Positions 5,358 through 56,080 of a stretch of DNA of 64,000 nt are shown here, piece by piece. The DNA comes from Patescibacteria group bacterium (lineage in GTDB: Bacteria > Patescibacteriota > Minisyncoccia > Phycocordibacterales > UBA918), in assembly GCA_040386275.1 (NCBI GenBank), contig JAZKFU010000008.1, positions 176,219 through 240,218 on the forward strand, read 5' to 3'. Under the pieces are notes generated by a model. That model ran no database searches. It was not told the DNA's origin and was given only the letters and a program-made list of their open reading frames with translations. Both the position numbers and the translations under genes were made by a program. Positions within the stretch are counted from its first letter, which is position 1. Each line of letters begins with the position of its first letter.

Positions 5358-5370
5358 ATGCTTTGTCCTC

Positions 5371-8569: not shown

Positions 8570-8938
8570 TTATACGATAAGTTCTTTTACACGCTTTACT
8601 AACTCATCAAGACTAGTGTGCGCTTTTACAATGTAGTCTTCGAGCTTTGCTTCATGAGCATGACCAATATTGGCCACGTCATCCATGGCGGAAAGTACAA
8701 CTACGTGAGCGGTTTGGCCCCACGGGTCTTGGCGGAGACGTCGTAACATTTCGTGCCCATCCATAATCGGCATCATCAAGTCCATTAAAATTAAATCTGG
8801 TTTTTCAGCTACGGCAAATTCTAAACCAGTTGCACCATCAGGAGCAGCAGACACATTAAACCCACCTTCAGTTAATGCTTCAACCATTGCCTCTCGTAGG
8901 TCCGGTTCATCTTCAACAATTAGAATATGCTTACTCAT
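8570..8938 (-). CDS. receiver-only response regulator (CheY-like)
   Basis: MSKHILIVEDEPDLRE...LILMDLMMP...; start set at the internal Met preceding the REC domain; no output domain. Confidence 0.75.
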   Translation of the reverse strand: MSKHILIVEDEPDLREAMVEALTEGGFNVSAAPDGATGLEFAVAEKPDLILMDLMMPIMDGHEMLRRLRQDPWGQTAHVVVLSAMDDVANIGHAHEAKLEDYIVKAHTSLDELVKRVKELIV

Positions 8939-9016
8939 TGTCGAAAGTATACCACAGCTTTTACGCTGCAATATATACAATGATTCACATGAGAACGTGA
9001 TGAAAGATGATACGAT

Positions 9017-19657: not shown

Positions 19658-19659
19658 AT

Positions 19660-26575: not shown

Positions 26576-27223
26576 CTAGGCTACCTTTTTCGCTGCTCGT
26601 TTGGCAACCGTTGCCTTTTTACTCACCTTCTTTTTAGCTTTAGCCTTCTCGATTGCCGGGGTAACTTTCTTTGGCTTCCGAGTTTTAACTACAATATCCT
26701 CCCCTGCTTCTTCAACTGACTTAGTACCAACAATCGGTAATGCCTCAACAAGTTTTTCAGACGCTTTAATCAGCGCTAAAATTTGATTTATTTTCTCTTC
26801 TACAACACCAAGTTGCTTAACAAGTAGTTTGTAGTCAGGCGGGACAAACGCAGCGGGACTTGGTCGCTCCATAGTTCGGCCTACCATTTCGTTTGGTGTA
26901 AATCGATCTCGAGAAGTGTTGCTGTTTGTTGGGGCTTCATTTTTTGCAGCGAAACAATCACGACATAGTACGGGCTTCTTTCCATCAGGTCGGAACGGTA
27001 CTTCACATGACTTACCACAGGTAGTACAGGTAGCATTGTATAGAGTCACATCTTTCTTCTCTCGATCATTAGAGAATGATGGTCGGTTGTTGCCAAATGA
27101 AGGGCGTCCAGCACCTTCAAAACGCTTCTTTGGAGCATATTTACCCGCATCACTAAAGGGACGTCCACCAAGGTCTGGTTTGCGATTACGTAAACCGCCT
27201 GGTTCAAAGTTTTTCATATACAA
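26576..27223 (-). CDS. zinc-ribbon protein with R/G-rich N-terminus and Lys-rich histone-H1-like C-terminal tail
   Basis: CTTCGKSCEVPFRPDGKKPVLCRDCF (CxxC-x16-CxxC); C-terminus KAKAKKKVSKKATVAKRAAKKVA. Confidence 0.5.
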   Translation of the reverse strand: MYMKNFEPGGLRNRKPDLGGRPFSDAGKYAPKKRFEGAGRPSFGNNRPSFSNDREKKDVTLYNATCTTCGKSCEVPFRPDGKKPVLCRDCFAAKNEAPTNSNTSRDRFTPNEMVGRTMERPSPAAFVPPDYKLLVKQLGVVEEKINQILALIKASEKLVEALPIVGTKSVEEAGEDIVVKTRKPKKVTPAIEKAKAKKKVSKKATVAKRAAKKVA

Positions 27224-34000: not shown

Positions 34001-35023
34001 ATAGTCCCAGGTGTAAATGTCCTCCTCTTCATGTTTGTGCAGAATATTAAATGGTGTACCAGACAGTTGTAATGTAAAGTTGGTTGGGATTTTAGAAAAT
34101 GTGGTATCGCCTAGATTACTTTGTGTCCCCTCGTGTGCTTCATCTACAATGACCATATCCCATATGGTGTCGAAAACTTGATCGTTCTTATCGAAACCCC
34201 TTGCTTCGGACCCTGAAGATTCATCAGCAACTACCCGCTTCGAGAGTCGCAGATCCTGAATTGAAGCAAAGTACACAAATGATTTACCGCTTTCCAACAA
34301 AACACCAATATTTTCACCTTTTGACTTTGAAGCATATTCATACCCAGCCCCAGCTAAAACCTTGTTGAAATCATCGTACCAGTCAACACTTACACTGGGT
34401 CGATGGGTAACGATAAGTACTCGCTTCATCTTAATTTCCTTAGCAACTTGCATGGCAGCAGATGTTTTGCCGAAACGCATCTTAGCATTCCAAAGAAAGT
34501 GTTTTCGCTTTTTCGCTATTGCTGTGCTTGTCTTTCTGATAGCCTCAAGCTGATTAGGACGGAAAGAAAATTCTGCTGTGGATTTAGCACTTTTTTCTTT
34601 AGTCGATAGAGCTGTTCTCCCCTCCTTTACTGCTTGAATTGCATTTTTAGCAACTGCCAAATTAACTTCAAACCATTCTGACCGAGTATTTCTTACACTC
34701 TCAGTCTTACGCTCATAACCTGATCGAATAAGTAGCTGGTGAACTTCATGATCTGAAAAACAATCACCCTCATTCATAACTGCAAGTTCTACATATTCAA
34801 GCTTATACGGAATATCAGCAGTTTTAGTTTGAGCTTTAATTCTTTCGTGTGCAGCGATTTCGATATCTTGCTGTGTAGGTTCGAGTGAACTTGTAGTCGC
34901 TTTACCAATTTTCAGGCGTCCTTCATGGGACCTGAGAGGAATTGAGTATACGTAAACAATACCGTATGAAAAAGTTTCATGAATATTATTAATAACAGCA
35001 TGATTCGGTACCCCTTTAGACAT
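31052..35023 (-). CDS. large restriction/defence fusion protein: GIY-YIG/T5orf172-like N-terminus, SF2 DEAH helicase (ResIII-like) and N6-adenine DNA methyltransferase-like domain (NPPY)
   Basis: GIVYVY...LKIGKATT at residues 21-44; Walker A RFGKTSAAM at 183-191; DEAH at 294-297 (nt 34133-34144 verified); motif VI QTAFRCQ at about 545; coiled-coil K/E-rich linker; VVGNPPYQ at 1001-1008 (nt 32003-32014 verified); downstream NGSGTLG at about 1207. Confidence 0.7.
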   Translation of the reverse strand: MSKGVPNHAVINNIHETFSYGIVYVYSIPLRSHEGRLKIGKATTSSLEPTQQDIEIAAHERIKAQTKTADIPYKLEYVELAVMNEGDCFSDHEVHQLLIRSGYERKTESVRNTRSEWFEVNLAVAKNAIQAVKEGRTALSTKEKSAKSTAEFSFRPNQLEAIRKTSTAIAKKRKHFLWNAKMRFGKTSAAMQVAKEIKMKRVLIVTHRPSVSVDWYDDFNKVLAGAGYEYASKSKGENIGVLLESGKSFVYFASIQDLRLSKRVVADESSGSEARGFDKNDQVFDTIWDMVIVDEAHEGTQSNLGDTTFSKIPTNFTLQLSGTPFNILHKHEEEDIYTWDYVMEQEAKLNWDEQNPGVPNPYAELPALNIFTYDIDTYANHIGTFGEGFHDSLDGAFKFHEFFRIAEDDADSPARFVHESMVKKFLDLLVNNTLPTKFPYATEEYRNFNKHSLWLLPNRVKTIEAMENLLKKHSVFGKFGIVNISGNNHDDEEDSDAKNRVTTAIKNNDFTITLTGQRLTTGASIKEWTAVFMMSDTNSATTYLQTAFRCQTPAKIEGKIKTQGYVFDFAPDRTLKLVAEAIELNHKSGKINTPEQKEAMERFLNFCPILAAEGGSMKLYDVSMMLGQLKKAIIERVSRNGFDDPKLYNDELLKLDELDIAKFNQLKELVGKSSTERVNEIKINELGMDDLKTKQAEEAERKKKKGEVLTEEQKEALNKLKEARRQKQTAVSILRAVSIRMPMLVYGANVSIREDITLSKFINLVDEESWQEFMPAGLTKAQFRDFTKYYDEDVFKGVAHSIRAKAFDCDDLLPTERVQAIADIFSTFKNPDKETVLTPWNVVNKHLTLAFGGHNFSSGEVDKKTGKPIWVSKGVDTSVWSQEDAKILEINSKSGLYPLLAAYNVYSRKLVASKKLEEREAHKIWADVLSNHIYVLCKSPMAQSITKRTLAGYNESYKPNIVYINDLVQKLQQKDCFTDYELKNELLEKFKLPNDMKFKAVVGNPPYQINTETNFATPVYHLFFDAAKSLGPDYVSLIHPARFLFNAGATPKEWNRQMLNDPHLSIALYEPNSQKIFSGVDIKGGVCITVWNKNKPTGGLGGTFVPYKELRSVLSKIGSNRFSSIVGPRGETKLNVVLDKKYPNDLRIAPNYFERFPKVFAKNQNSDTDIKILGLEKGNKRTERYISESIVNDSKLNKWKVLLAKSNGSGTLGEVLSTPIVAGPRTGCTYSFLQIGSFETNSEAQNCIKYLKTKFNRSLLGTLKVTQDNSKSVWSNVPMQDFTKKSDIDWSKTVAEIDQQLYKKYSLDKTEIDFIETNVKLMT

Positions 35024-43363: not shown

Positions 43364-46015
43364 CTACAAATGAAGTTTCAAATACTTACCGGTGTATGAA
43401 TTAGGATTCTCGGCTACTTGCTCTGGAGTACCTTTTGCTACTACTGTTCCCCCACCGGCTCCGCCTTCAGGTCCGATATCAATGACGTAGTCAGCTGATT
43501 TAATGACATCAAGACTGTGCTCAATTACCATCACGGTATTGCCTTGATTGACGAGCTCTTGCAGGATTTCGATGAGTTTCTTTACGTCTTCATAGTGCAG
43601 TCCAATGGTTGGCTCATCAAGGAGGTAGATGGTTTTTTGCGTGTGGGGTCGGTAGAGTTCAGAGGCAATTTTTACGCGTTGAGCTTCACCTCCGGAAAGA
43701 GTGGTCGCACTTTGACCAAGCTTAAGATACGACAACCCTACATCAAGCAAGGACTTCAGTCGTTCTTCAATAGCGGGCACTTCATGGAAAAAGGTATACG
43801 CTTCTTCAATGGTCATCTCGAGTACCTGGTGGATGTTTTTCTTGCGGTAGGTCACTTCAAGGGTTTCTTTCGTGAAGCGCTTTCCTTCACAGACATCACA
43901 CTCGACAAACACGGTTGGCAAGAAGTGCATCTCGACTGCAATCACCCCGTTCCCCTGACAGGCTTCACAGCGACCACCTTTGACGTTGAATGAGAATCGT
44001 CCTGGCTTCCACCCACGTGCTTTGGCTTCACTACTATTGGCGAACATATCACGAATGTGTGAGAAGGCACCGGTGTAAGTAGCGGGGTTACTGCGCGGCG
44101 TACGGCCAATCGGTGACTGGTCAATCAAGATAGAACGACCGAGGTATTCAGTTCCGGTAAATTCGGCACAGTTATAGGTTTTGGCAGTGCGGAATTTTTT
44201 CTCCAGTCGGCCTTTGAGGTTACGGTCGACAATCTCGTACATAAACGTTGATTTCCCCGAACCCGATACTCCCGTCACACAGATAAGACGCCCCAGCGGG
44301 ATATCGATGTTGAGGTTTTTAATGTTAAAGGCTTTTCCACCTTTGATTTTAATAGAACCTTTTTCACCGGTACGCCGTTCTGGTACGGCAATCTTTTTAG
44401 TACCACGCAAATAATCTAACGTCACTGAGCCTGAGGGATTGGTTTTAGCGGAGAGTAGTTCTTCGAGGTAGCCGGCGACCACTACTTCGCCTCCGTGAAT
44501 ACCGGCTCCCGGTCCAATATCAACGAGGTAGTCTGCAGCGTAAATCGTGTCTTCATCGTGTTCAACCACGATAATGGTATTCCCTAAATCGCGGAGTTCA
44601 GACAGGGTTTTAATCAAACGGTCGTTATCCCGTTGGTGAAGGCCAATGGTTGGCTCATCAAGCACATAGAGCGCACCCACCAGACCAGAACCCAGCTGTG
44701 ACGCGAGACGGATACGTTGGGCCTCTCCACCAGATAGGGTGTTGGCTCGACGATCAAGCGTAAGGTATTCAATACCAACGTTATTCATAAATTCTAGGCG
44801 GTCAATAATCTCGCGCAACGCAGGCCAGGCAATTTCATGTTGCTTAGGACTTAGTTTCAAATCATCAATAAACTTCGTAGCGTCTTTCACCGTCATCGCG
44901 GTGAAGCCTACTATATTGATACCTAAATCTTTTTTACCATCTCCGCCAAGATACACACGCATCGCCTCGGGACGTAAACGAGCCCCCTGACAGGTCGGAC
45001 ACACATCGGATTGGAAAATACCAACCACCCCGAGTCCATTACATTCAGGACAGGCACCGTACGGTGAGTTAAACGAAAACAATCTAGGCTCAACTTCCGG
45101 GAACGACGAACCATCCACTGGACAGATAAATTTAGCCGACAAAGTACGCACTTCCCCGCCAGGGCTTTCGATTTTAACCAGACCACTCGCGACCGAAAGC
45201 GCCACTTCAACCGCCTCACTTAACCGTTCGTGAGAACCTTTTGGGTCATCGGTAAATTCACTGACATAAATTTCATCAATCAACACATCAATGTCGTGGC
45301 GTTTGGTTTTGGTGAGAATAATTTTTTCCCGGAGCTGTTTAATTTCACCGTCAATTTTAACGGTTTCAAAACCTTTCCCGAGTAAATCGTACAATAGTTG
45401 GTAGTATTCACCTTTACGCCCTACTACTACGGGCGCAAAAATAGACACCCGGCCTTTGCTCACTTGAATACCAAGGACTTTTTCAGACTCCTTTTTAGTT
45501 GCGGCTACTACCTCTTTACTTTCAATTGATTTAAGAATGATGCCTAAAATTTCATCTTGGGAGAGTTTTTGAATCGGCACATCAACATCAAGACAGTATG
45601 GCTGTCCCACCCGTGCGTAGAGGATACGGAGGTAGTCGTAGATTTCGGTAATGGTCGCAACCGTTGATCGTGGATTACGAGAAGCGGATTTTTGATCAAT
45701 GGAAATAGCCGGCGAGAGACCACTAATTTCATCCACATCCGGCTTTTGCATTTTATTTAAAAACTGGCGGGCATACGGCGACAGTGATTCAACGTAGCGA
45801 CGTTGACCCTCGGCAAAAATAGTATCAAAAGCAAGTGATGACTTTCCTGACCCTGATGGACCCGTAATGGCAATCATTTTTCCACGCGGCATTTCAACAG
45901 TGATGTCTTTAAGATTGTGAGTGCGGGCACCACGTACAATAATCTTGTTTTCGCGCTCTGAAGTTTTTGCCTGTGTTTTATCGGTATTTATTTTTCTTTC
46001 GGGTATTTTTGCCAT
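43364..46015 (-). CDS. uvrA: excinuclease ABC subunit A
   Basis: 883 aa; two ABC ATPase modules ([22 protein letters not shown]), zinc-finger Cys clusters, signature LSGGE. Confidence 0.9.
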
Positions 46016-46095
46016 GGTTTATAACATAGTTACACCACCAGATGATGCTGGTGGTCGGTACACTGATTATAACTGAGAAACATCGTATCGTACAG

Positions 46096-47439
46096 TTATT
46101 TTGTTTTGGGTGGCTGAATGGGGAACGTCATGACAATTTGCGTGCCCACGCCTTGAATTGACTCTACACCAATGGTCCCACCCATCAGTTCAATTAGTTC
46201 TTTGGTGATCCACATTCCTAAGCCAGTGCCCGTGGTAGCACTACTTTCTGCGTCTTTGGTACGGAAGAACGGTGCAAAGAGTTTCTTTTGATCTTCTGCT
46301 GAAATACCAGCCCCAGTATCTTTTACCCGCACTTCAACATACGAATGTTCTTTATGGGTAGCAATGGTAACCACTCCTTTATCGGTGTACTTAATTGAAT
46401 TACTAATGATGTTAGTGAGGATTTGATGCGTGCGCTTTGGGTCTGCAAAAATTGTCTGAGAAGTATTTGTGTCGTCCCACACTAATTGACATTGCTTTTG
46501 AGTGGCTACCGGGGTAAATTCGGCCACTACATCGCGAACAACAGTATGCACGTCAATTGTTTCAGGATGGATTTCGAGCTTACCTGATTGCAAACGCGCG
46601 ATATCTAACAAGTCACTCACGATAGTAATTAACCGTTCAGAAGATACTTCTATTCGTGAGGCTTGTTCTTTATAGGTATCTTCAACTACATGTTCTTTTA
46701 ACATGCTCGCATAGCCTCTGATAGCAGTTAACGGGGCGCGTAGCTCGTGCGCTATCATATGCGTAAAAAGGTCTTTGGTTTCGATGGCTTGTCTTGCTTC
46801 TGTATAGAGATAACGATAGTCAGTCAATTTAATGTGCCAGATAGCTAACAACAGAAGGAATATGTAGATAAAAAACAAATGCCAGTAGGCGGCAAACTCT
46901 CGGTCAGCAAAAAGCTGATCTACGGCGGCTAAGGATGATTTAGTATAAATGAAAAACTCACTTCCCTCTGCGCTTGTAAACGCACGGTAGCCATACCAAA
47001 AGCGGCTACCTGATTCCATCGACTCAAAAATTATTGATTCACTGTTAAACAAACGAGCGCTACTAAAAGGTTCAACATTTTCTTCAATTTCACCGAGATT
47101 TTTGCTATCACGCGCGACAAGAGAAATGATGCCTTGAGGAGTAGCTTGTAGTAGTTTTACATCAATAATGTCTGGGTTTTGCTCGGCGAGTGACTGCATT
47201 TGCGTTTCAATAATTCCTAAATCTACGTTGGTGGCAACTGACAAAGACACCAACGCATCGTGCATGATGCCTACTTTGTCTTTTTGTAATCTATCTTGAT
47301 TATACGTTCCTACTTCGAGAAATTTTTGTCCGGTATACAAAAACAACAGCGGAATTACAAACAGCAACATCAGGGCAAACAGCACTTGGGGGTGCTGTTT
47401 GATATAGGTAACCGCTGATAGTAGCTTTTGTGTAGACAT
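46096..47439 (-). CDS. membrane sensor histidine kinase
   Basis: two TM helices flanking a periplasmic domain; H-box HELRAPLTAIRGYASML; GTGLGMWITKELIELMGG. Confidence 0.8.
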   Translation of the reverse strand: MSTQKLLSAVTYIKQHPQVLFALMLLFVIPLLFLYTGQKFLEVGTYNQDRLQKDKVGIMHDALVSLSVATNVDLGIIETQMQSLAEQNPDIIDVKLLQATPQGIISLVARDSKNLGEIEENVEPFSSARLFNSESIIFESMESGSRFWYGYRAFTSAEGSEFFIYTKSSLAAVDQLFADREFAAYWHLFFIYIFLLLLAIWHIKLTDYRYLYTEARQAIETKDLFTHMIAHELRAPLTAIRGYASMLKEHVVEDTYKEQASRIEVSSERLITIVSDLLDIARLQSGKLEIHPETIDVHTVVRDVVAEFTPVATQKQCQLVWDDTNTSQTIFADPKRTHQILTNIISNSIKYTDKGVVTIATHKEHSYVEVRVKDTGAGISAEDQKKLFAPFFRTKDAESSATTGTGLGMWITKELIELMGGTIGVESIQGVGTQIVMTFPIQPPKTK

Positions 47440-47443
47440 GCAT

Positions 47444-50161
47444 TTATGGCTGTGGCTCTGGTACTTCTATCGTTTTACGGCCGATGAAGTTTAATCCAAA
47501 TAACATAAGTATTAACCCAATCGCCATAGTTGATACCCCGAGGATGACATTAATCGCCGCGCTCGAGAACAACCGTGAGTCATCACCCGTAGTAATCGTA
47601 GCTGGTGAATCAACAACTATGCCATCAAACGCTTCTGCTCGCTTTACGAAGGCAAAACGTGCACTTTTAGCGACAATTTTCCCGGCATTGTCAGTCACAC
47701 CTATATAGACCTCATGTTCCCCATCCTCGAGTTCTTTATCAAGTCGATAGTTCCAACTACCATCACTGTCAGTTTTTATCGTCACAATAATCGGCGTACT
47801 ATAAATATAGAGCGTAATGAAACTGTTAGGTAAGGCGTAGCCTGATAGTAACGCGGCAGCGACGGGTTTTGTGCCGGTGGCTACAATGCCGCCTGTATCT
47901 GCTGCGGTGATGGATTTAACCTTAAGGATATCTTCACGGACCACCCCAGTTTCTTTTGGTGATTCGTAGGCAATAAGTACTTCAGGAGTCGCGTCAAGTG
48001 GATCGTACCCACTTTGAATTTCTACACCATCAAGAAATCCGTCATTGTCGGAGTCAGCCACAAAGGGATTGGTACGGTACAAACGAACTTCGTCGTAGTC
48101 AGAAATTAAGTCTTTATCAAAGTCTTCAGACGCTTTTTGTTTCGTGCGTTCGGTAATCAGTGTATTGGTGCGCTCGACGTTTTCTTTGGTACGGGCAATC
48201 ATGCTGTCGAGATAGGTTGCAATATCATTTTGTTCACCTTTTGTATCATCGGTTACTGAACCTTTAAGAGCAGTAATTGTTTCAGTAATTTTAGCAATTG
48301 CTTCTGTATCTTCCATACGTAATGAAACCGACAGCTTATCAAGCTCAAGCGCTAGTTGTTTTTCAATATCGTCATCAATACTGACAGGTGGTTGTGGGGG
48401 TGGTGTTATAAGTGTAGTTGGAGCGACAGCAGTTCGCGGTACTGGAACAGCAGTGGAAGTGGTAGCGACCGTGGACGAAGGGGTACTAGCAATGGTTTTG
48501 ATTGGTTCCAGTGCAATAGACTTGAGGGTTTCGATTTGTGTCGTCTCGATTGGTGTTGGAGCCACCGTCACAATGTTTTTGAAAATTACGCCAGCTCGCA
48601 CAAAATCATATTCACCAAAACTATTTTGTACTACCGCTTTTAGCGCGTATTCTCCATCAGGAAAGATGCTGGTGTCCATACGGTAAATCCAGGTGGCGGG
48701 ACCACTTTTAATAGCGGTCCCGAGCGGACTAAAGCGAAGTGCATTTTTGGGCTGGATTGATAAAACAACACTATTAGCACCAGCTACCTCAATCGAAAGT
48801 CCAACCACACCTTTTAGCGGTGTCGGTGCGAGGACATTAATTTTTACCGGTGGCTTGAGTTCAGTTATAACGGTAGTGGTTGCAACAATGGGATTAAGTA
48901 CGGCTGTGCTACTCGCTAATGTTGTGGTGGTAGTCGCGGTAGTCGGAGCAGCAATTTTATTAACCGTTGCAAACAAACCAGAAACCGAATCGGTATCTCG
49001 ATTGGCTACTGCCCTAATACGATAGGCTCCTAATGGTAGTGACCCTGAATTCCAGGTTCGTCGCCAATTGCCCGTGGCAACCAACTCAGCGTTACCGATG
49101 GGGTACGTTCTATTGGTAGCAGTGTGAATTGCTTCGAGCGCTACAGAATCAGCATTTTCAGTTCTTACGTATAAAATAAACGAATCAACTGATTGCGTTA
49201 CATTAGGCACGACCGAAATAATTCGAATACCCGACACTACGGTTGTGCTTGCTGTTGGTGTGAGGTTATTTGGGTTTACAATTGTGCTGGTAGTTGAAGC
49301 GATTGTGTTACTAACGGTAGTAGTTACGGGCGTAGTCGCTAATTTAGTAATACGGTTGGGAGACACATGATCATATCCACCATAGTAATTAGTAACAACT
49401 ACACGTACGCGATAGGTACCAGCGTCCAGCACCCGAGTATCAAACGGATGCGTCCAGGTGGTGTCTGAAGTTTTATTCATTGAAAGGTATGAGGTAGCAA
49501 CTAGTCCATCGTCAGCTCGAATGAGCTGCATTCTCACTTGTTGCGCATAGGGTACGGTTACATTCACTGGAACGGTGCCTTCAAGATTTTCGGTATTACC
49601 TTCCACATTTACTACCGGGATAGGTCTACGATCTACTAAGTTGGCACATTGGGTGTTGGTGTAATTATCAAGCAACGTACAATCAACGAGCGGCAGAAGG
49701 TCAGTCGTCGAACTCGCCAGTTGAGTTAACTGGGCGGTTTGTGTCAGCGTGTTTAATCCACCTTGGGCACTAAAAAGCGAAAACCAAATTCCAAAACAGG
49801 CAATCAGCACACCTACCCCACGCGAAACCAAACTCATGGTGGTGGCTGTTTTCTCGGATAGTTGAAACTGTGGTATCTGTCGCAATAATACAAAACTTGG
49901 TGGCGGCGGTAGACGAAGGGGCGTCCGGTTACGAAACGATACTACCGTAGGCACTTCAGTCTCAATAAAGACCAGTTGTTTTTTAGTGTGGGTTTTGGGT
50001 ACGGTTACGGTTACCTTTTTTACTGCCTTTACCCTGACTTTTTTAATTTTTGGTAGGGCTGGTTCTGGAGAAACAAGTTTTTTAACCACGCGTTTAGGCG
50101 TTTTTGGTACCTCCTTAGCTTGAGCCAGCTTTTTACTCACCGTCATAGTGTCAGTATACAT
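47444..50161 (-). CDS. large surface protein (Lys-rich N-terminus, TM, Thr-rich Ig-like repeats, TSP3-like Ca-binding motif, C-terminal TM)
   Basis: 905 aa; DSDNDGFLDGVE Ca-binding-like motif; T/V-rich beta-rich repeats; TM near residue 110 and a second TM close to the C-terminus. Confidence 0.5.
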   Translation of the reverse strand: MYTDTMTVSKKLAQAKEVPKTPKRVVKKLVSPEPALPKIKKVRVKAVKKVTVTVPKTHTKKQLVFIETEVPTVVSFRNRTPLRLPPPPSFVLLRQIPQFQLSEKTATTMSLVSRGVGVLIACFGIWFSLFSAQGGLNTLTQTAQLTQLASSTTDLLPLVDCTLLDNYTNTQCANLVDRRPIPVVNVEGNTENLEGTVPVNVTVPYAQQVRMQLIRADDGLVATSYLSMNKTSDTTWTHPFDTRVLDAGTYRVRVVVTNYYGGYDHVSPNRITKLATTPVTTTVSNTIASTTSTIVNPNNLTPTASTTVVSGIRIISVVPNVTQSVDSFILYVRTENADSVALEAIHTATNRTYPIGNAELVATGNWRRTWNSGSLPLGAYRIRAVANRDTDSVSGLFATVNKIAAPTTATTTTTLASSTAVLNPIVATTTVITELKPPVKINVLAPTPLKGVVGLSIEVAGANSVVLSIQPKNALRFSPLGTAIKSGPATWIYRMDTSIFPDGEYALKAVVQNSFGEYDFVRAGVIFKNIVTVAPTPIETTQIETLKSIALEPIKTIASTPSSTVATTSTAVPVPRTAVAPTTLITPPPQPPVSIDDDIEKQLALELDKLSVSLRMEDTEAIAKITETITALKGSVTDDTKGEQNDIATYLDSMIARTKENVERTNTLITERTKQKASEDFDKDLISDYDEVRLYRTNPFVADSDNDGFLDGVEIQSGYDPLDATPEVLIAYESPKETGVVREDILKVKSITAADTGGIVATGTKPVAAALLSGYALPNSFITLYIYSTPIIVTIKTDSDGSWNYRLDKELEDGEHEVYIGVTDNAGKIVAKSARFAFVKRAEAFDGIVVDSPATITTGDDSRLFSSAAINVILGVSTMAIGLILMLFGLNFIGRKTIEVPEPQP

Positions 50162-50198
50162 CCCCGCCTGTCGGTAAAGGTGCTTATTTCAACACACT

Positions 50199-50621
50199 TT
50201 ACTTGGCAGTACTTTTGGCGAGTCGGCGTACTTCAGCGATTAATTCATTTAAATCAGTCATCGCTTTGATGCGGTAGGCGCTAGCACCGAGCTCAATGGC
50301 TTTTGATCGTTCATTATCGCCACTTTTATTAGAAAATATTATCACGGGTGTAGCCTTCACCTGTTCATCGGCTTTTAACTCAGCCAATACCTCAAACCCA
50401 TCTTTACCTGGTAGCATCAAGTCAAGTACAATAACTTGCGGGTCAAATTGTTTTGCTAAATCGAGAGCTTGTAATCCATCATTACTAAACATGTGCGGGC
50501 AATGACTATTAGAGAGCTTTACGGAAAGCATATTACGAAGTAGTGGATCATCTTCAACCACCAGTACGCGCACCACTGCTACGTCTTCAAATACTGGTGT
50601 CAAGGGTGCATAGATAGCCAT
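50199..50621 (-). CDS. receiver-only response regulator
   Basis: VLVVEDDPLLRN...VIVLDLMLPGKDG; no output domain. Confidence 0.75.
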   Translation of the reverse strand: MAIYAPLTPVFEDVAVVRVLVVEDDPLLRNMLSVKLSNSHCPHMFSNDGLQALDLAKQFDPQVIVLDLMLPGKDGFEVLAELKADEQVKATPVIIFSNKSGDNERSKAIELGASAYRIKAMTDLNELIAEVRRLAKSTAK

Positions 50622-50627
50622 AAAATA

Positions 50628-51053
50628 TTAGGTAAGGTTATTAGTAGTAGTAGACAGCGCTTCAACGATTTTAGCTATTACTTCATCCGGTGCAAAATTG
50701 GCTTTGATAATATAATCTCGAATCCCTAGTTTTTGGATTCTTTCAATTTCAATAGATTGACCAGAATTTGATATTACGATTACGGGTAATTGTGGCGTTA
50801 TCTGTTTACTGGCTAACACGTCGAGAATTTGATACCCCGTTAATCCGGGTAAATGGATATCGAGCAGTAATAAATCGGGCAACGTTTTTTCGATAGACGC
50901 CAAACACTCTTCTCCGTTTACAAAATGCGCGACAATTACTCCCTGCATTTCTAATTTTTGAATAATAACACTTGCCAAAAAGGTATCGTCTTCTGCAAGG
51001 TAAATGGTTTTATTTGTCAGGGTAAATTCATGCATAGTAATATTGTATACCAA
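50628..51053 (-). CDS. receiver-only response regulator
   Basis: IYLAEDDTFLAS...LLLLDIHLPGLTG; no output domain. Confidence 0.75.
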   Translation of the reverse strand: MVYNITMHEFTLTNKTIYLAEDDTFLASVIIQKLEMQGVIVAHFVNGEECLASIEKTLPDLLLLDIHLPGLTGYQILDVLASKQITPQLPVIVISNSGQSIEIERIQKLGIRDYIIKANFAPDEVIAKIVEALSTTTNNLT

Positions 51054-51060
51054 ATACTGA

Positions 51061-51894
51061 CTATACGCTCCCGGTATGGTGCTTAAACGTTAGGGTAAAG
51101 GTGCTCCCCAGACCTTCACGGCTCTCAAATCGAACGGTACCACCAAGAGAATCCATGATTTTAGACACAATATATAAACCCAGTCCATAGCCGTCAGCAT
51201 CAACTTTTTTGGCATTTTCGGCCCGAGAAAACCGTTTGAAGATTTTATCTTCATGCGCAATCGGTATACCGATACCAGTATCTTCTACTGTGACAATAAC
51301 AGATTCATCAACTACCTTGACACGCACTGTTACGGTTCCACCGGCAAGGGTGTATTTAATGGCGTTATCAATAATATTTACAAGCACATCTTTTACTGAA
51401 GAAGCGTCGGCTAACACAATCGCAGGAGTCGGAGCAAGATCTACCAAGACACGAACGTTGTGTTCAGTGGCTTTATTGATAAATTCATCACACGACTCTT
51501 TAACGAGTACATTAATATTGATAGGCAGGGCGGGCTTGAGTTCGGTTTGTAGCTCCAAATGTTCAACTTCAAGGAGGTTATTAACGAGCTTTACTAAGCG
51601 TACAGTACTTTGCTGGGCCAACGAGACAACGTCTCGTTGCCTGGGATTAAGTTCACCCAAATCTCCATCGAGCAACATCTGTTGCGACCAACGTAAGGCC
51701 GAGAGTGGAGTTCTGATTTGGTGGGCAGCGATTGATATAAATTCTGATTTCTGGGTGTCGAGGGTTTCTAGTTTGATATTAGCCCGGCGTAACTGCAAAT
51801 CACGCTGTACTAAGAGACGGGCGCTTTTATCCATTGAATCAACAATCGCGTTTAAGCGATAGATTTCATTTTCTAATTCTTTTACCCTATCCAT
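51061..51894 (-). CDS. soluble histidine kinase (HisKA + HATPase_c)
   Basis: H-box AAHQIRTPLSALRW; G-box GYGLGLYIVSKIMDSLGG; no TM segments. Confidence 0.75.
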   Translation of the reverse strand: MDRVKELENEIYRLNAIVDSMDKSARLLVQRDLQLRRANIKLETLDTQKSEFISIAAHQIRTPLSALRWSQQMLLDGDLGELNPRQRDVVSLAQQSTVRLVKLVNNLLEVEHLELQTELKPALPININVLVKESCDEFINKATEHNVRVLVDLAPTPAIVLADASSVKDVLVNIIDNAIKYTLAGGTVTVRVKVVDESVIVTVEDTGIGIPIAHEDKIFKRFSRAENAKKVDADGYGLGLYIVSKIMDSLGGTVRFESREGLGSTFTLTFKHHTGSV

Positions 51895-51912
51895 AGATTA
51901 CACAGCACTACG

Positions 51913-53115
51913 TTATTCTCCCAAAAGCGTTATTACGACGGTTTCATTATGTAGTTGAGGAGTACATTTATTAATGGAGTATGACGTACCATTAATTGGT
52001 GCTTGTTCAGCATACGTATAGAAGCCGATGATGGGAACGTCTTTTCCAATAACTGCTTGAATGGCTTGAATTTCCTCTCGGGCAGTTTCTTTATCCGCAA
52101 ACAGCGTATTACGTACGTGGCAACTAAAAATGAAAGCTACTTTAGGGGTCGTACCTAAATTTTCCAGCGCTGAGGTTGCGGCGCGGCTCGCTGCGGCTAT
52201 CGCATCTTCTTTTGACCCCACCATTAATTGTACTTGGGAACCTTCAAGCACTTCACCACCGCAGACAATAGAACCATCCTCAGTTACAGCAAACGGAGCG
52301 CGCAAAAGAAACTCCTCACTATGTGTATCTTTAATTCCAAGCGGGTAGGACAGAGCCACTTCTCCTAACATTACTTCTCGAAGATTGGAGATTTCCTGTA
52401 CACCTAAATACCGTTCATACAACGAGACGGCGGGCTTATGATTTATTTCATGAATGGTGGTGCCAACAGACTTCGTTATGATTTGTGGTGCGCCAACTAC
52501 ATTCCAGCCATGATTCACTCCTACAGAGTATTTAAAATTCCCCGAGAACCCCACCCCCACTACGGCATCAGTTTGAACTTCAGCACCAAAAAATTGATGG
52601 GTTTCCACTAATTTTCCATTATCACCAGCTGACCCTCCAACCACCGGGAAATTCTGACCAAGAACGGAAGTAACCCCCCGCAATACCGCTGAGCCGTTCC
52701 CTTTTAATCCGTCTGCAAACATCATGACGAGTTCGGGATTATGGGCTTGGAGTTGCGTGGCGAGAGCACTTCCCGCCGAAGTTGAGTCAGCTGTCAAATT
52801 CGGAGCGATAGCAGTGGTACAGGTAAGCGTATCGGAAGCAAGCACCATAATAGCTACGGAATCCCGCATAGTAGGGCCTGCTTTAGTAATTTCTCCGGCG
52901 GTTGAAGCGCCAACCACTTTCACCATATCGCCTACGACTGAGGTTACACCTTTAAGAACAGCCGTATGATCAAATGAACTTGAAGCAAACACAAACGCAA
53001 TATGTGCAGGCATTGCACTCTGAGCCAGTAGCTCTTGCAGGGCTTGATTCACCGCATTCACTCCCGCAACAAAACTATCCGCATCAGAACTCGTTCCAAT
53101 TCCAATTGATACCAT
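51913..53115 (-). CDS. FIST domain sensory protein
   Basis: 400 aa; two-lobed FIST N/C pattern (FVFASSSFD..., VVGASTAGEI..., GFYTYAEQAPING...HNETVVITLL). Confidence 0.55.
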   Translation of the reverse strand: MVSIGIGTSSDADSFVAGVNAVNQALQELLAQSAMPAHIAFVFASSSFDHTAVLKGVTSVVGDMVKVVGASTAGEITKAGPTMRDSVAIMVLASDTLTCTTAIAPNLTADSTSAGSALATQLQAHNPELVMMFADGLKGNGSAVLRGVTSVLGQNFPVVGGSAGDNGKLVETHQFFGAEVQTDAVVGVGFSGNFKYSVGVNHGWNVVGAPQIITKSVGTTIHEINHKPAVSLYERYLGVQEISNLREVMLGEVALSYPLGIKDTHSEEFLLRAPFAVTEDGSIVCGGEVLEGSQVQLMVGSKEDAIAAASRAATSALENLGTTPKVAFIFSCHVRNTLFADKETAREEIQAIQAVIGKDVPIIGFYTYAEQAPINGTSYSINKCTPQLHNETVVITLLGE

Positions 53116-53149
53116 AGGATTATATTACTTATTAATACCGTAAGTATAG

Positions 53150-53195
53150 CAAACAAAAACCCCCGCTCTGTGAGGAATCGGGGATTTATAGGTAA
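53150..53195 (-). terminator. rho-independent terminator downstream of uvrB
   Basis: cccccgctctgtgaggaatcggggg stem; tttttgtttg on the minus strand. Confidence 0.5.
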
Positions 53196-55337
53196 TTAAA
53201 ACAACCCTTTCTTCTTCTTGACTTTGATACCCGTGGACTGTTCTTCAAAAAAAGCAATTTCATCACGAATAATAGCTGCGGTTTCAAAATCGAGAATGGC
53301 TACCGCGTCTTCCATTTGCTGACGTTTTTCTTTAAGGACTTTAGCGGGGTTACGTTTAAAGAGTTCTACGTCGACCTTAAGCAAAGTTTCTACTGTTTCG
53401 TCGTGTTCGGTGCGCATCTGATCGGTAATTGATTTAATGTCTTTGGCGATAGTAGTCGGAGTAATGCCATGTTTGGTATTATGAGCAACTTGAATCGCGC
53501 GACGACGATTAGTTTCATTTATGGCGTACGTTAACGCATCAGTCATTTCATCCGCATACAGAATCACGCGACCCAACACGTTACGAGCAGCACGACCAAT
53601 CGTTTGAATTAACGCCGTCTCACTGCGAAGGAACCCAGCCTTATCAGCATCAAGAATCGCTACTAGCTCCACTTCCGGTAGGTCAAGCCCTTCACGCAGT
53701 AAGTTTACCCCCACTAAACAATCAAACTTCCCTTTACGAAAATCAGTTAAGATTTCGATTCGTTCAATAGTTTTAATATCACTGTGAATATACTTGGTGT
53801 TTATTTTCTTCTCCGTTAAAAATTCAGCCAAGTCTTCAGCCATTTTTTTTGTTAGCGTAGTTGTAAGCACTCGACCTCCGCCCGCTATGACCCGCTCTGC
53901 TTCGGCGATAAAGTCTTTAATCTGCCCTGGGTAGTCGCCAATTTGATTTACTTTCCGTAAATCAATTTCCGGATCAATTAACCCCGTTGGGCGAATAATT
54001 TGTTCAACCACAGCACCTTTTTCAAGACAAAGATTAAGGTCAAAACCTTTAATCCACTCTGACCGAATGGATTTAACTTCCCCGGCCTTTTGCACAGGCG
54101 GACAGGCCATAGGACAACATAGTTCGTATTCTAATCGTCCTGGAGTAGCTGAGGTGTAGATTCGTTGTCCTACGCGTTCATCAAATTCAGCGTATTTAAG
54201 CGGCCGGTTATCAACGGCCGACGGTAATCGAAAGCCGAATTCAACCAGCGTGTCTTTACGACTACGATCGCCCGCATACATACCATTTAATTGCGGCAAC
54301 GTTACGTGCGACTCATCAATAATGGTGAGAAAATCTGGTTTTCCTTCAGGTGTGTGAGGGAAATATGATAACAGCGTAAACGGTGCTTCGCCGGGTTTAC
54401 GACGATCAAAGTGTCGCGAATAATTTTCAATCCCGTTACAGTAACCAATCTCACGCATCATCGCTAAGTCGTGATTGGTGCGCCGACGCAACCGCTCTGA
54501 TTCAAGCAACTTGCCTTCTTTTTTAAATTTCTTTAATTGTTCATCGAGCTCAAGTTTTATATCTTCAATGGCAACTTTCCGCTCATCTTCTGGTGTCACA
54601 AAGTGTTTGGCTGGAAATAAGAAAAAGACTTCCGGTTCCTCAATAATGGCGCGACTAACACTATCAATTTTGGTAATTGATGAAATGACATTTCCTGAAA
54701 AGCCCAGACGATAAATCATCCGTTCGTTGGTGGGCATGATTTCAATGGTATTTCCGACCGCCCGGAAATGACCAGGCAATAAATCAGCGTTGGTTCGTTC
54801 AAAGTACATATCAATCAAGATACGCAGTAACTCCATCCGCGTCGTTTCAAACCCGCGTTTAATCTGTAAATGTTTCTTTAAATATTGGGCTGGCGAACCC
54901 AATCCATAAATACATGATACTGAAGCCACAATAATCACGTCTTTTCGCGTTAACAACGCTTGGGTTGACGCGTGCCGCAATCGGTCAATCTCTTCGTTTA
55001 CCTGCGATTCCTTTTCAATAAACGTGTCTGAGGTTGGCATGTACGCCTCTGGCTGGTAGTAGTCGTAATACGACACAAAGTAATGCACGGCATTATTAGG
55101 AAAAAAGTCCCGGTATTCTTGCGCGAGCTGAGCCGCCAGGGTTTTATTGTGAGCAATAACAAGCGTCGGTTTTTGAATCTGCTGAATCACATTCGCCCCG
55201 GTAAACGTCTTTCCTGACCCAGTAACACCTAAAAGTGTCTGGTGTTTTTGCCCAGCCCGTACCCCCGCCACCAACTGTTCAATCGCCTTAGGCTGATCCC
55301 CCGCTGGTGTTTTTTCCGTAGAAATCTCAAATTGCAT
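53196..55337 (-). CDS. uvrB: excinuclease ABC subunit B
   Basis: MQFEISTEKTPAGDQPKAIEQL N-terminus, Walker A GVTGSGKT, helicase motifs, C-terminal UVR domain AAIIRDEIAFFEEQ; start at the internal Met. Confidence 0.9.
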   Translation of the reverse strand: MQFEISTEKTPAGDQPKAIEQLVAGVRAGQKHQTLLGVTGSGKTFTGANVIQQIQKPTLVIAHNKTLAAQLAQEYRDFFPNNAVHYFVSYYDYYQPEAYMPTSDTFIEKESQVNEEIDRLRHASTQALLTRKDVIIVASVSCIYGLGSPAQYLKKHLQIKRGFETTRMELLRILIDMYFERTNADLLPGHFRAVGNTIEIMPTNERMIYRLGFSGNVISSITKIDSVSRAIIEEPEVFFLFPAKHFVTPEDERKVAIEDIKLELDEQLKKFKKEGKLLESERLRRRTNHDLAMMREIGYCNGIENYSRHFDRRKPGEAPFTLLSYFPHTPEGKPDFLTIIDESHVTLPQLNGMYAGDRSRKDTLVEFGFRLPSAVDNRPLKYAEFDERVGQRIYTSATPGRLEYELCCPMACPPVQKAGEVKSIRSEWIKGFDLNLCLEKGAVVEQIIRPTGLIDPEIDLRKVNQIGDYPGQIKDFIAEAERVIAGGGRVLTTTLTKKMAEDLAEFLTEKKINTKYIHSDIKTIERIEILTDFRKGKFDCLVGVNLLREGLDLPEVELVAILDADKAGFLRSETALIQTIGRAARNVLGRVILYADEMTDALTYAINETNRRRAIQVAHNTKHGITPTTIAKDIKSITDQMRTEHDETVETLLKVDVELFKRNPAKVLKEKRQQMEDAVAILDFETAAIIRDEIAFFEEQSTGIKVKKKKGLF

Positions 55338-55401
55338 GACTATCCAGTATACCCCGCCCCCCATAATATAAAAAGCCACCCCACCCCCGCCACCATTTCA
55401 C

Positions 55402-55486: not shown

Positions 55487-56080
55487 ATGGGAAATAGATT
55501 ATTTACTTTTTCAAGTAATGAAATCTACCACTGTTATAATCGCGGTGTAGATAAACGTACTATATTTGAGGACCAGCAAGATTTTATATATTTTTTAAAA
55601 CTTTTAAGAAATTTTAATACCTCAAAAGTATATGGAAATTTAAGATTATCTCTCAATAAAGAGCCCATAAATCCTCCAGTAACAATACTTACGTATTGCT
55701 TACTTCCAAATCACTTCCATATAGTAATACGTAATAATAGTGACGAGGGAGGATTATCAAAATATATTCAACGAGTTGTAGGCGGTTACACGATGTATTT
55801 TAATCAAAAACATAAAAGAAGTGGTGCTTTGTTTCAAGGAACGTTTAAAGCAAAACATATTGAAACAGATTTGTATTTACGTCATATTTTAGCCTACGTA
55901 CGGTATAACAATATTGTTCACGATGTAGAAGACAAAAATTTGTACCGGAGCTCATTAAATACAAAAGACGACTTAGTACGAGGTTTAACCACAGACCTAG
56001 GAGAAGAAAATATGTTGGAAGTAGTTAAAATTATAAAAGAAATCAGAAGTACGAGGTTAAACCTCGTACTTGAGGAGTAA
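55487..56080 (+). CDS. tnpA: IS200-like / REP-associated tyrosine transposase (HUH Y1 family)
   Basis: YHCYNRGVDKRTIFEDQQDFIYFLKLL, HUH motif LLPNHFHIVI, catalytic-Tyr region AYVRYNNIV; the C-terminal 10 codons read through the right REP. Confidence 0.75.
   Translation: MGNRLFTFSSNEIYHCYNRGVDKRTIFEDQQDFIYFLKLLRNFNTSKVYGNLRLSLNKEPINPPVTILTYCLLPNHFHIVIRNNSDEGGLSKYIQRVVGGYTMYFNQKHKRSGALFQGTFKAKHIETDLYLRHILAYVRYNNIVHDVEDKNLYRSSLNTKDDLVRGLTTDLGEENMLEVVKIIKEIRSTRLNLVLEE
56045..56075. repeat. REP-like palindrome (right flank, inside the tnpA 3' end); a partial extra copy lies at 55974-55990
   Basis: agaagtacgaggttaaacctcgtacttgagg. Confidence 0.7.

Follow-up and report, generated by a model that had tools for sequence, protein, structure and literature searches.

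The six signalling genes on the minus strand at positions 46096-53115 of the window, the 64,000-nucleotide stretch of DNA that we analysed from an uncultured, ultra-small bacterium of the Paceibacterota (CPR/Patescibacteria), are probably two independent cassettes juxtaposed in this lineage within the slot between uvrB and uvrA, a reading to which we assign a probability of about 60%. Cassette A, with a FIST protein, a cytoplasmic histidine kinase and a regulator made of receiver domains, would resemble the NosP-NosK systems. Cassette B would combine a surface-exposed co-sensor of 905 aa with the membrane histidine kinase encoded directly downstream of it.

An ORF check of the window confirmed that the block contains six genuine, co-directional genes. 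The intergenic gaps from the FIST gene to the membrane kinase gene are 18, 7 (or 25), 6, 37 and 4 nt, in agreement with the range of 4-37 nt given by the initial annotation, and the block is set off by an 80-nt spacer at either end. The slot is limited upstream by uvrB (53196..55379, minus strand), which borders one or both cassettes in 22 related loci, and downstream by uvrA (43364..46015, minus strand), which does so in 21. The uvrB-FIST spacer (53116..53195, minus strand) holds a weak hairpin with a T-run (53160-53176) and an A+T-rich stretch in which TATAAT lies 3 nt ahead of the FIST start codon; these signals are suggestive only, because consensus matches are no commoner than in shuffled sequence. 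The spacer between the membrane kinase gene and uvrA (46016..46095, minus strand) contains the hairpin CCACCAG-CATCAT-CTGGTGG. Its 34 nt closest to uvrA share 82% identity with the corresponding stretch of the related locus L087, and because this stretch is common to both loci despite their different upstream cassettes, it must belong to uvrA. Promoter and terminator scans of the block returned match counts near those of shuffled sequence and therefore do not define the transcription unit.

Related loci show that the block is composed of two separable parts. Cassette A stands alone between uvrB and uvrA in three relatives (L087/88, L095/96 and L097/98), whose FIST proteins are 75-82% identical to ours, and cassette B stands alone in L003, whose UvrA is 97% identical, as well as in about 20 further loci. 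Both cassettes are present in L089/90, in reversed order (B then A). Cassette A sits outside the uvr slot in one genome (L093), and in another (L091) the FIST gene lies beside a different kinase, which carries Peripla_BP_6 and dCache domains. The spacer that separates uvrB from the surface-protein gene in L003 showed no trace of cassette A, and the regulator-uvrA spacer of L087 none of cassette B; only the uvrA-side leader is common. The view that the six genes are a single unit in which the surface protein is embedded is therefore not upheld, since each cassette occurs alone and their order can be reversed. The uvrB-uvrA interval is instead a chromosomal slot in which close relatives swap signalling cassettes.

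The first gene of cassette B (47444..50161, minus strand) encodes a 905-aa protein anchored at both ends. It begins with a disordered, Lys-rich cytoplasmic tail (aa 1-110; 15% Lys, net charge +17) and a hydrophobic signal-anchor helix, TM1 (aa ~111-131), which are followed by three Ig-like beta-sandwiches (aa ~180-275, 310-403 and 438-528) with Thr-rich linkers, a three-helix segment (aa 597-678), two TSP3-type Asp motifs (aa 680-691, degenerate, and 703-714), a Big_13 domain (aa 771-845; Pfam, 47.8 bits, cut-off 27) and a second, C-terminal hydrophobic helix, TM2 (aa 867-893). The charge, helix and model data thus agree with the topology first described for this protein (Lys-rich N-terminus, TM helix, Ig-like repeats, TSP3-like motif and C-terminal TM helix), although the word "giant" overstates a length of 905 aa. 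More than 30 genomes encode homologues of 855-1002 aa that share this architecture, and the ORF is therefore not an artefact of fused frames. The only Pfam matches are Big_13 and TSP3_bac (residues 703-724; 27.0 bits, cut-off 25); Pfam revealed neither RTX repeats nor a type I secretion signal, no NCBIfam sorting-signal model of the sortase or exosortase type matched at E<=0.01, and no LPXTG or PEP motif precedes the terminal helix, where S866 is the only invariant residue in a seven-sequence alignment. An exact-sequence look-up gave no record, and a PDB sequence search gave no match at E<=1. In the AF2 model, the Ig domains reach a pLDDT of 80-88 and the overall mean is 55.7. With Foldseek, the Ig region matches the tandem-Ig extenders of large adhesins and S-layer proteins (6xi3, 5irb, 2yn5 and 7ptp).

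Conservation within this family is concentrated next to the membrane. Across 36 members, the sole conserved region is a core at aa 661-893 (47483..48179, minus strand), which comprises the TSP3 motifs, the Big_13 domain and the C-terminal TM helix with its conserved G882 and G889; conservation is 0.5-0.74 in the core versus 0.2-0.3 elsewhere. The Asp residues of both TSP3 motifs are at least 85% conserved across 36 homologues, and the motifs are predicted to be calcium-binding repeats of the DxDxDGxxDGxE type. Compared with the protein of L003, TSP3 and Big_13 are 96% identical and the remainder 38-70%, and these two elements hold 61-75% identity (49% for the TSP3 segment of L089) where whole-protein identity is only ~30%. 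The distal Ig-like domains and the Lys-rich tail evolve fast.

The second gene of cassette B (46096..47439, minus strand) encodes a kinase of 447 aa with HisKA and HATPase_c domains. Its parts are, in order, TM1 (residues 19-37), an ectodomain (38-181), TM2 (182-204), a DHp domain with H231 and the CA domain. The ectodomain between the two TM helices has a PDC/Cache fold and is WalK-like, and TM2 continues unbroken into the DHp domain as one helix (171-250); neither a HAMP nor a cytoplasmic PAS domain was recognized by Pfam. A word-indexed search with residues 1-223 returned no matches, and a PDB profile search with the family matched only the catalytic core. Matches in relatives take in the ectodomain too (query residues ~6-440). 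Most genomes encode no local receiver for this kinase.

The surface protein and the membrane kinase are adjacent in 36 of the 38 Paceibacterota loci, and theirs is the sole adjacency that remains invariant across the uvrB/uvrA, pentose-phosphate and other contexts, at least three in all. At the junction, a 4-nt overlap is usual in relatives, and the window has a 4-nt gap. Distant loci revealed no extra conserved partner gene around the pair, whose neighbours there are housekeeping genes (rpiB, rpe, transketolase halves, DAG kinase and cyclophilin). On the strength of the 36 adjacencies, we conclude that the surface protein belongs with the downstream membrane kinase. Our literature search found nothing specific on such a pair, which, judged from these sequences, is a previously undescribed and widely conserved one. 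We propose that the two proteins form a translationally coupled pair in which the surface protein would serve as an accessory co-sensor of the kinase, analogous to the action of YycH/YycI on WalK. The module of TSP3 motifs, Big_13 and C-terminal TM helix may contact the Cache ectodomain, the TM helices or both, and the distal Ig-like domains would face outward, where they would sense the condition of the cell surface or a host, or contact with either.

A less likely explanation, although one to which we leave some chance, is that the 905-aa protein is a structural envelope component, either S-layer-like or an adhesin, and that the kinase senses a small ligand alone through its Cache domain, so that the two genes are linked by co-expression or because the surface protein is a regulated target. 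The PDC/Cache fold of the ectodomain classically binds small ligands, the Ig region finds its best structural matches in adhesin extenders and S-layer proteins, and two family members (L039 and L040) have no adjoining kinase. In addition, the mirror-tree analysis linked the core of the surface protein only weakly to the ectodomain of the kinase (partial correlation 0.31, a value not independent of phylogeny), and the TM segments of the two proteins showed no correlation. However, it would be unusual for co-expression alone to keep two genes side by side through several changes of context, in most cases with the stop codon of one overlapping the start codon of the next. The strong conservation lies in the membrane-proximal module beside the kinase ectodomain and not in the exposed distal part, and the kinase lacks a transcription-factor output with which to control the surface-protein gene locally.

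The proposed pairing may be carried a step further, to a contact-sensing device specific to Paceibacterota (CPR), which we regard as a long shot. The fast-diverging distal Ig-like domains would recognize the surface of a host or partner cell, and a stalk of TSP3 and Big_13 stiffened by Ca2+ would pass binding or mechanical load to the Cache ectodomain. The signal would then pass from the output-less receivers to a target protein, for example in the pilus or attachment machinery, with no transcription factor involved, and the Lys-rich cytoplasmic tail could provide a second, direct output by binding nucleic acid or acidic lipid.

Cassette A opens with a soluble protein of 400 aa (51913..53115, minus strand) that consists of stand-alone FIST_N and FIST_C domains (Pfam: FIST, 157 bits; FIST_C, 113 bits; together residues 40-373) and has no hydrophobic helix. 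The family has 481 matches at E<1e-10, and those carrying names are Patescibacteria. In 40 relatives, H202 is invariant and C285 and H389 are nearly so, and all three are candidate ligand residues. Against the NCBIfam equivalog for NosP (NF041558), the protein scores 93 bits with a cut-off of 450 and is not assigned to that family; because the score is so far under the cut-off, the ligand may have nothing to do with haem or NO. A PDB sequence search matched no solved structure at E<=1, and the literature searched contained neither a specific account of FIST in Patescibacteria nor the haem-ligand residues of NosP. We presume that the protein is the auxiliary sensor of cassette A.

In every relative with cassette A that we examined, the FIST gene is directly followed by the gene for the cytoplasmic kinase (in the window 51061..51894, minus strand), which has 277 aa and no TM segment or recognized sensor domain. 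HisKA (residues 48-114) and HATPase_c (163-272) are its only Pfam domains, and no Pfam model matches the N-terminal 45 residues. The catalytic residues are intact (H58, N-box 173, G1 205 and G2 235). The NahK/ErcS model of NCBIfam (NF041832) gives 111 bits with a cut-off of 400, so the kinase falls outside that family. Certain positions of DHp helix 1 are reported to have a role in partner specificity (Skerker et al. 2008), and these read RWSQQ in the cytoplasmic kinase versus RGYAS in the membrane kinase, from which we infer that the two kinases would differ in their partners.

The third component of cassette A is a tandem receiver cut by one stop codon. REC1 (50628..51053, minus strand; Response_reg, 69.8 bits) has 141 aa when read from a TTG start, but translation probably begins at the ATG at 51035 (134 aa), which matches the start called in relatives. 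REC2 (50199..50621, minus strand) has 140 aa and a Response_reg score of 72.8 bits. The two share a reading frame that is interrupted by a single TAA (50628-50630) at which REC1 terminates, and the ATG of REC2 follows two codons past the stop (read-through translation ...NNLT*YFMAIY...). REC1 is 60% identical to residues 1-128, and REC2 70% identical to residues 154-275, of the 275-aa REC-REC protein of L087. The regulators of 260-280 aa in relatives have two receiver stretches each and no GGDEF, EAL or HD-GYP output in Pfam. Therefore, the initial annotation was right to recognize two receiver-only ORFs, since Response_reg is found in both, but they are halves of a single ancestral REC-REC gene, split in its linker, and not separate regulators. 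This is a natural, domain-level fission of a regulator through one stop codon. Because the stop lies in the linker and an ATG follows two codons later, both domains are complete and keep all their catalytic residues (D22/D23, D65, S95 and K117 in REC1; D24/D25, D67, S97 and K119 in REC2). There is no obvious Shine-Dalgarno sequence ahead of the ATG of REC2, which might be translated poorly. Such a weak ribosome-binding context, the in-frame TAA itself and the absence of cassette A from the near relative L003 could mean that a nonsense codon has inactivated or truncated the regulator and that the cassette is being lost in this lineage, but we give this little credence, since the stop sits exactly between the domains, the same stop is present in an independent assembly (L002) that has slightly diverged elsewhere, and the FIST and kinase genes are unbroken.

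We propose that the soluble FIST protein binds a cytoplasmic ligand, docks on the sensor-less cytoplasmic kinase and sets its rate of autophosphorylation, and that this kinase would phosphorylate the tandem-receiver protein. The stop codon in the linker would yield REC1 and, if translation restarts at the downstream ATG, a separate REC2. Because the tandem receiver has no enzymatic or DNA-binding output, it would have to act through protein-protein contact. The earlier domain calls (FIST, HisKA/HATPase and REC) are all correct in Pfam, which also detected no DNA-binding output domain in the block, as had been reported, and the suggested protein-protein output is plausible.

It remains to consider the original suggestion that all six genes constitute one multi-kinase system, with both kinases feeding the receivers through a phosphorelay or along branches and with the surface protein built in as an input or output of the whole. 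Several observations lean in this direction. The gaps of 4-37 nt enclose no convincing internal terminator in the terminator scan, and both cassettes share the same slot in the lineage of L089. A small receiver precedes the surface-protein gene in six loci (L011, L015, L016, L019, L021 and L089), and the split places REC2 exactly at this position. The distinct ~120-aa receiver of these relatives is closer to REC2 than to REC1 (60-82 vs 44-57 bits), and in L028 a REC2-like regulator (53% identical) lies directly upstream of the pair, although that locus has no FIST protein or cytoplasmic kinase. We nevertheless judge a single system improbable. Each cassette stands alone in close relatives and the order varies; the REC-REC gene is tied strictly to the FIST-kinase cassette by ancestry; the specificity positions of DHp helix 1 differ between the kinases; and no Hpt domain or hybrid kinase was found by Pfam in the block, which thus lacks the components of a classical phosphorelay. 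The shared preference of the cassettes for the slot and their co-occurrence in two orders (the window and L089) could still reflect functional coupling and not independence, and there may be cross-talk now that REC2 lies directly upstream of the surface-protein gene. The third receiver-only regulator that had been counted with the block does exist at 8570-8938 (8570-9055 in the orthology comparison), but it adjoins a divergently transcribed PAS-kinase of its own (9017-10288). We considered it as a relocated orthologue of the ~120-aa receiver and rejected this candidate; the identity is ~30%, no better than with any other receiver.

Signal transduction in CPR/Patescibacteria is almost unstudied. 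Few regulators are kept in their small genomes, so a pair conserved across dozens of Paceibacterota species probably matters for the perception of the envelope or of a host. In organisms thought to live attached to other cells, the pair is a concrete candidate for host-contact or envelope sensing, and cassette A represents a FIST/NosP-type system whose output is a tandem receiver and nothing more.

In the NosP-NosK/NahK-NosR/NarR systems of Pseudomonas, Legionella, Vibrio and Burkholderia, the autophosphorylation of the kinase is modulated by NosP, which binds to it (PMC12570481; PMC8846402). Cassette A likewise has a stand-alone FIST_N and FIST_C protein encoded next to a sensor-less DHp/CA kinase and followed by a response regulator, and we expect the mechanism, in which an auxiliary protein tunes the kinase, to carry over by analogy. 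However, its regulator is a REC-REC protein without a c-di-GMP-metabolising output, here interrupted by a stop codon; its host is a Patescibacteria bacterium; and a role for haem or NO is only putative. Another dual-receiver protein is FrzZ of Myxococcus xanthus (PMC3441718). The ancestral regulator of cassette A also consisted of two receiver domains and nothing else, and it presumably signals by binding a protein target, but it would be fed by a HisKA-type rather than a CheA-type kinase, has no chemosensory gene context and is divided into two ORFs in the window.

The membrane kinase resembles WalK in its extracellular PDC/Cache domain between two TM helices, but it has no HAMP or cytoplasmic PAS domain, scores 170 bits against HK_WalK with a cut-off of 725, and has no adjacent OmpR-type WalR in the block. 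As in WalK/YycH/YycI, the candidate modulator is an extracytoplasmic protein with a membrane anchor whose gene lies in the cluster of the kinase gene. The 905-aa protein is unrelated to YycH and YycI in sequence and fold, has a membrane anchor at each end, contains TSP3 and Ig-like elements and is encoded upstream rather than downstream of the kinase, so the analogy would be functional only. Its tandem beta-sandwiches, flexible linkers and Asp-rich calcium motifs are shared with SiiE, MpIBP, RTX adhesins and S-layer proteins. In contrast to the giant adhesins, it has only four Ig-like domains in 905 aa instead of thousands of residues, and unlike the RTX/T1SS adhesins it is held by one TM helix at each end, extends a Lys-rich tail into the cytoplasm and is genetically coupled to a kinase. 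Known principles are not overturned by this block, and every part of it has a recognizable analogue.

The six minus-strand ORFs of the signalling block (46096-53115) are present at the exact coordinates implied by the initial annotation: a FIST protein (51913-53115, 400 aa), a cytoplasmic kinase (51061-51894, 277 aa), the receivers REC1 (50628-51053, 141 aa counted from TTG) and REC2 (50199-50621, 140 aa), a surface protein (47444-50161, 905 aa) and a membrane kinase (46096-47439, 447 aa), separated in this order by 18, 7, 6, 37 and 4 nt. Alignment with relatives suggests that the real start of REC1 is an ATG at 51035, which gives 134 aa. Pfam confirmed all of the proposed domains with scores far above threshold (FIST and FIST_C; HisKA and HATPase_c in both kinases; Response_reg in both receivers; Big_13 and TSP3_bac in the surface protein), and the catalytic residues are intact in the kinases (H58 and H231; N, G1 and G2 boxes) and in REC1/REC2 (acidic pair, D65/D67, S95/S97, K117/K119). 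The earlier description of the sequence was accurate; its functional reading, a single six-gene operon with an embedded surface protein, needs recasting as two cassettes. The spacers measure 80 nt at both block ends and at most 37 nt inside, and scans of the block for promoter and terminator consensus sequences were uninformative about the transcription unit.

The block is bounded by uvrB (53196-55379, minus strand) and uvrA (43364-46015, minus strand), with tgt farther upstream on the uvrB side. Contigs were fetched for relatives of both the 905-aa protein and the FIST protein, and in them the content of this uvrB-uvrA slot varies. The surface protein and membrane kinase are its only occupants in L003, a relative whose UvrA is 97% identical, and in loci L004-L006, L008-L010, L012-L014, L017, L018, L020, L022, L023 and L029; the same pair is preceded by a receiver of ~120 aa in L011, L015, L016, L019, L021 and two JGI contigs. 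Other relatives carry only FIST, kinase and a 275-304-aa regulator in the slot (L087/88, L095/96, L097/98; FIST 75-82% identical), and L093/94 has these three genes outside it. In L091/92, the order is FIST, periplasmic-binding protein, dCache kinase and regulator. L089/90 has both sets, but reversed (REC, surface protein, membrane kinase, FIST, kinase, regulator), and the order of the window is found only in its own species (L001, L002 and L007, the last a MAG titled 'Patescibacteria group bacterium' in which the locus is 96-100% identical). From this comparison of gene order, we consider the block to be two cassettes side by side, cassette A (FIST protein, cytoplasmic kinase, REC1/REC2) and cassette B (surface protein, membrane kinase). 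Because slot content and order vary and the cassettes occur alone or reversed in relatives, the embedding of the surface protein is a by-product of the placement of cassette A before cassette B.

The slot spacers compared held no cassette remnants that could show gain versus loss. The 34 nt closest to uvrA, which contain a hairpin, recur in a relative whose upstream cassette is different, and uvrA probably has its own leader. An IS200-like Y1 transposase ORF (55487-56080, plus strand; Y1_Tnp, 26.7 bits) lies between tgt and uvrB on the opposite strand and recurs at the same place, beside the variable slot, in L003, L097 and L098; it might be linked to cassette turnover. Among more distant relatives, the labels are Kaiserbacteria, Paceibacterota, Nomurabacteria and Lloydbacteria. 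The identical FIST protein is encoded on an NCBI contig that, like L007, is labelled 'Patescibacteria group bacterium', and the window is accordingly assigned to a Paceibacterota-type CPR bacterium. Contig L021 (JBLIMJ010000008.1), labelled 'Acidimicrobiales bacterium', carries uvrB-REC-surface protein-kinase-uvrA, an arrangement typical of Paceibacterota, with a UvrA 83% identical to that of the window, and has probably been mis-binned; among the surface-protein relatives, several of the 'uncultured Candidatus Saccharibacteria' labels look doubtful too.

The two receivers of cassette A, previously read as separate receiver-only regulators, are halves of one ancestral tandem-receiver gene. The regulator that follows FIST and kinase in relatives consists of two Response_reg stretches and no other Pfam domain; REC1 matches its N-terminal half (60% identity to L087) and REC2 its C-terminal half (70%). 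REC1 and REC2 share one frame, and translation of 51053-50199 reads '...EALSTTTNNLT*YFMAIYAPL...', with a single TAA (50628-50630, minus strand) in the inter-domain linker and an ATG two codons on. The independent assembly L002, from another sequencing run, has the same TAA yet differs at several other residues; therefore, the stop is real and fixed, and not an error. No Shine-Dalgarno-like sequence is visible ahead of the putative REC2 start. The split at the linker could represent natural domain-level gene fission or a site of read-through or re-initiation.

Cassette B is built on a conserved pair. The proteins of the window were compared with every ORF in loci L003-L040: in 36 of these 38, the surface-protein gene is directly followed by a gene for a full-length kinase related to the 447-aa one. 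The 38 loci include the window's own species and three copies of one sequence. Because query residues ~6-440 are covered, the match includes the ectodomain. The junction is usually a 4-nt overlap (a 4-nt gap in the window), and clustering of all neighbouring genes in these loci showed that the pair is the sole invariant adjacency, with no receiver or other partner travelling consistently with it. Its neighbours are uvrB and uvrA in 22 and 21 loci, respectively; elsewhere it lies amid pentose-phosphate genes (rpiB, rpe and two transketolase halves; once between both transketolase genes) or in further contexts. Among the best 150 matches of an exhaustive HMMER search, ~70 representatives (clustered at 50% identity) with lengths of 431-460 aa matched the whole kinase, ectodomain included. 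At a single distant locus, L037, a P-type cation ATPase (4071-6476; Cation_ATPase_N/C) lies directly upstream of the pair and may hint at a calcium link. A literature search on the pair and on FIST in Patescibacteria found nothing specific.

The 905-aa ORF is not an artefact of fused frames, because more than 30 genomes encode homologues of identical layout, 855-1002 aa long and 29-96% identical in sequence. The topology first proposed for it is correct: the N-terminal 110 residues are Lys-rich (15% Lys, net +17), and a hydrophobic helix near 111-131 and a C-terminal helix (867-893) enclose a long Thr/Val-rich exterior. In the AF2 model (mean pLDDT 55.7; folded domains 80-88), a disordered Lys-rich tail (1-109) and the TM helix are followed by three predicted beta-sandwich domains (~180-275, 310-403, 438-528) joined by disordered Thr-rich linkers; next come a segment of three helices (597-678), an Asp-rich stretch modelled with low confidence, the Big_13 sandwich (~747-848) and the terminal helix (867-893). 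Foldseek matched the Ig-like region to tandem-Ig extenders of large adhesins (6xi3, MpIBP 5irb, SiiE 2yn5) and to S-layer proteins, all generic matches. Among 36 family members of 420-1042 aa, conservation is confined to residues ~661-895, which comprise two predicted TSP3-type motifs (D680-x-D682-x-D684...D688-Y-D690-E691 and D703-x-D705-x-D707-G-F-x-D711-G-x-E714), Big_13 and the terminal helix (G882, G889). Relative to L003, identity is 96% in TSP3 and Big_13, 64-70% in the Ig-like domains and 38-44% in the linkers and Lys-rich tail; in relatives at ~30% overall, TSP3 and Big_13 retain 61-75% (TSP3 49% in L089) and the rest 14-53%, mostly 16-38%. Taken whole, the surface protein has diverged faster than the other proteins of the locus in the L003 comparison (63%, vs. 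79% for the membrane kinase, 86% for UvrB, 90% for Tgt and 97% for UvrA). Such a gradient is what one would expect of a protein whose exposed distal part diversifies while its membrane-proximal base is under constraint. Lys-rich tails are not unique to this protein in the genome, since a 215-aa treble-clef zinc-finger protein (26576-27223, minus strand) has a Lys/Ala-rich, histone-H1-like C-terminal tail.

The membrane kinase, aligned with 68 full-length representatives, gave an AF2 model with pLDDT 92 (ectodomain 94-98). TM1 is continued by a long helix that reaches residue 69, and the predicted alpha/beta ectodomain (H74-87, E91-100, E103-109, H123-130, E136-142, E145-155, E161-169) leads into a single unbroken helix (171-250) through TM2 into the DHp; the model contains no HAMP or PAS domain. 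The modelled ectodomain is a PDC/Cache fold, comparable with dCache chemoreceptor domains, and the closer kinase family conserves F40, D61, N88, R146 and D174.

Certain residues of DHp helix 1 determine the partner choice of a kinase. These residues are RWSQQ in the cytoplasmic kinase vs. RGYAS in the membrane kinase, an indication, from general knowledge of kinase specificity, that the two use separate receivers. In some relatives, the membrane kinase probably has its cognate partner in the ~120-aa receiver that precedes the pair. Because this receiver is closer to REC2 than to REC1, and because a REC2-like regulator directly precedes the pair in L028, cross-talk from the membrane kinase to REC2 is possible in the lineage of the window.

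The third receiver-only regulator, earlier placed at 8570-8938, lies in an ORF at 8570-9055 (minus strand; REC at residues 44-156), divergent from a 423-aa membrane PAS-HisKA-HATPase kinase (9017-10288, plus strand) with which it forms a third two-component pair. The window therefore totals three kinases together with three genes that encode receivers only (one is split), and none has a DNA-binding output. Elsewhere, a 1323-aa fused restriction-modification-like protein (31052-35023, minus strand; T5orf172, ResIII/SNF2 helicase and Eco57I-type methylase) lies in the low-GC stretch of the window (0.38-0.40), and this region is therefore likely a mobile defence island. At 18029-22836 (plus strand), the window encodes a membrane-fusion protein of the HlyD type and an RND transporter of the AcrB family (608 bits), both notable in a lineage that, to our knowledge, is generally described as having no outer membrane.

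Cassette A, a stand-alone FIST protein beside a kinase with DHp and CA and without a sensor, has the same published layout as NosP-NosK/NahK. NosP-type FIST proteins bind their kinase and modulate its autophosphorylation (PMC12570481; review PMC8846402). By analogy, NosP logic is most likely: the FIST protein would sense a cytoplasmic ligand and set the activity of the sensor-less kinase, which would phosphorylate the tandem receiver. Without an output domain, this receiver must therefore act on a protein target, and FrzZ-type dual receivers (PMC3441718) are its nearest analogue. Family membership is not supported for either protein (NosP equivalog, 93 bits vs. a cut-off of 450; NahK/ErcS model, 111 bits vs. 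400). How FIST domains bind ligands is poorly understood (PMC8846402); in 40 FIST relatives, H202 is invariant and C285 and H389 nearly so. The family is widespread (481 matches at E<1e-10), and its members are called Patescibacteria wherever the source names them. Cassette A belongs to a known type of system with an unusual split output.

In cassette B, the translationally coupled conserved adjacency, the membrane-proximal constraint and the WalK-like kinase ectodomain point to the surface protein and the membrane kinase as putative physical partners; a mirror-tree test of their co-evolution gave a weak signal. The closest precedent is the control of WalK by YycH and YycI, two membrane proteins encoded alongside it (PMC7355866, PMC5013275). 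However, YycH and YycI have no homology to the surface protein, and the kinase falls outside WalK (no HAMP or PAS, 170 bits vs. 725, no WalR); therefore, cassette B would work like this system without being one. We consider cassette B, which is conserved across Paceibacterota, an undescribed yet recognisable variant of the arrangement in which an extracytoplasmic accessory protein accompanies a kinase.
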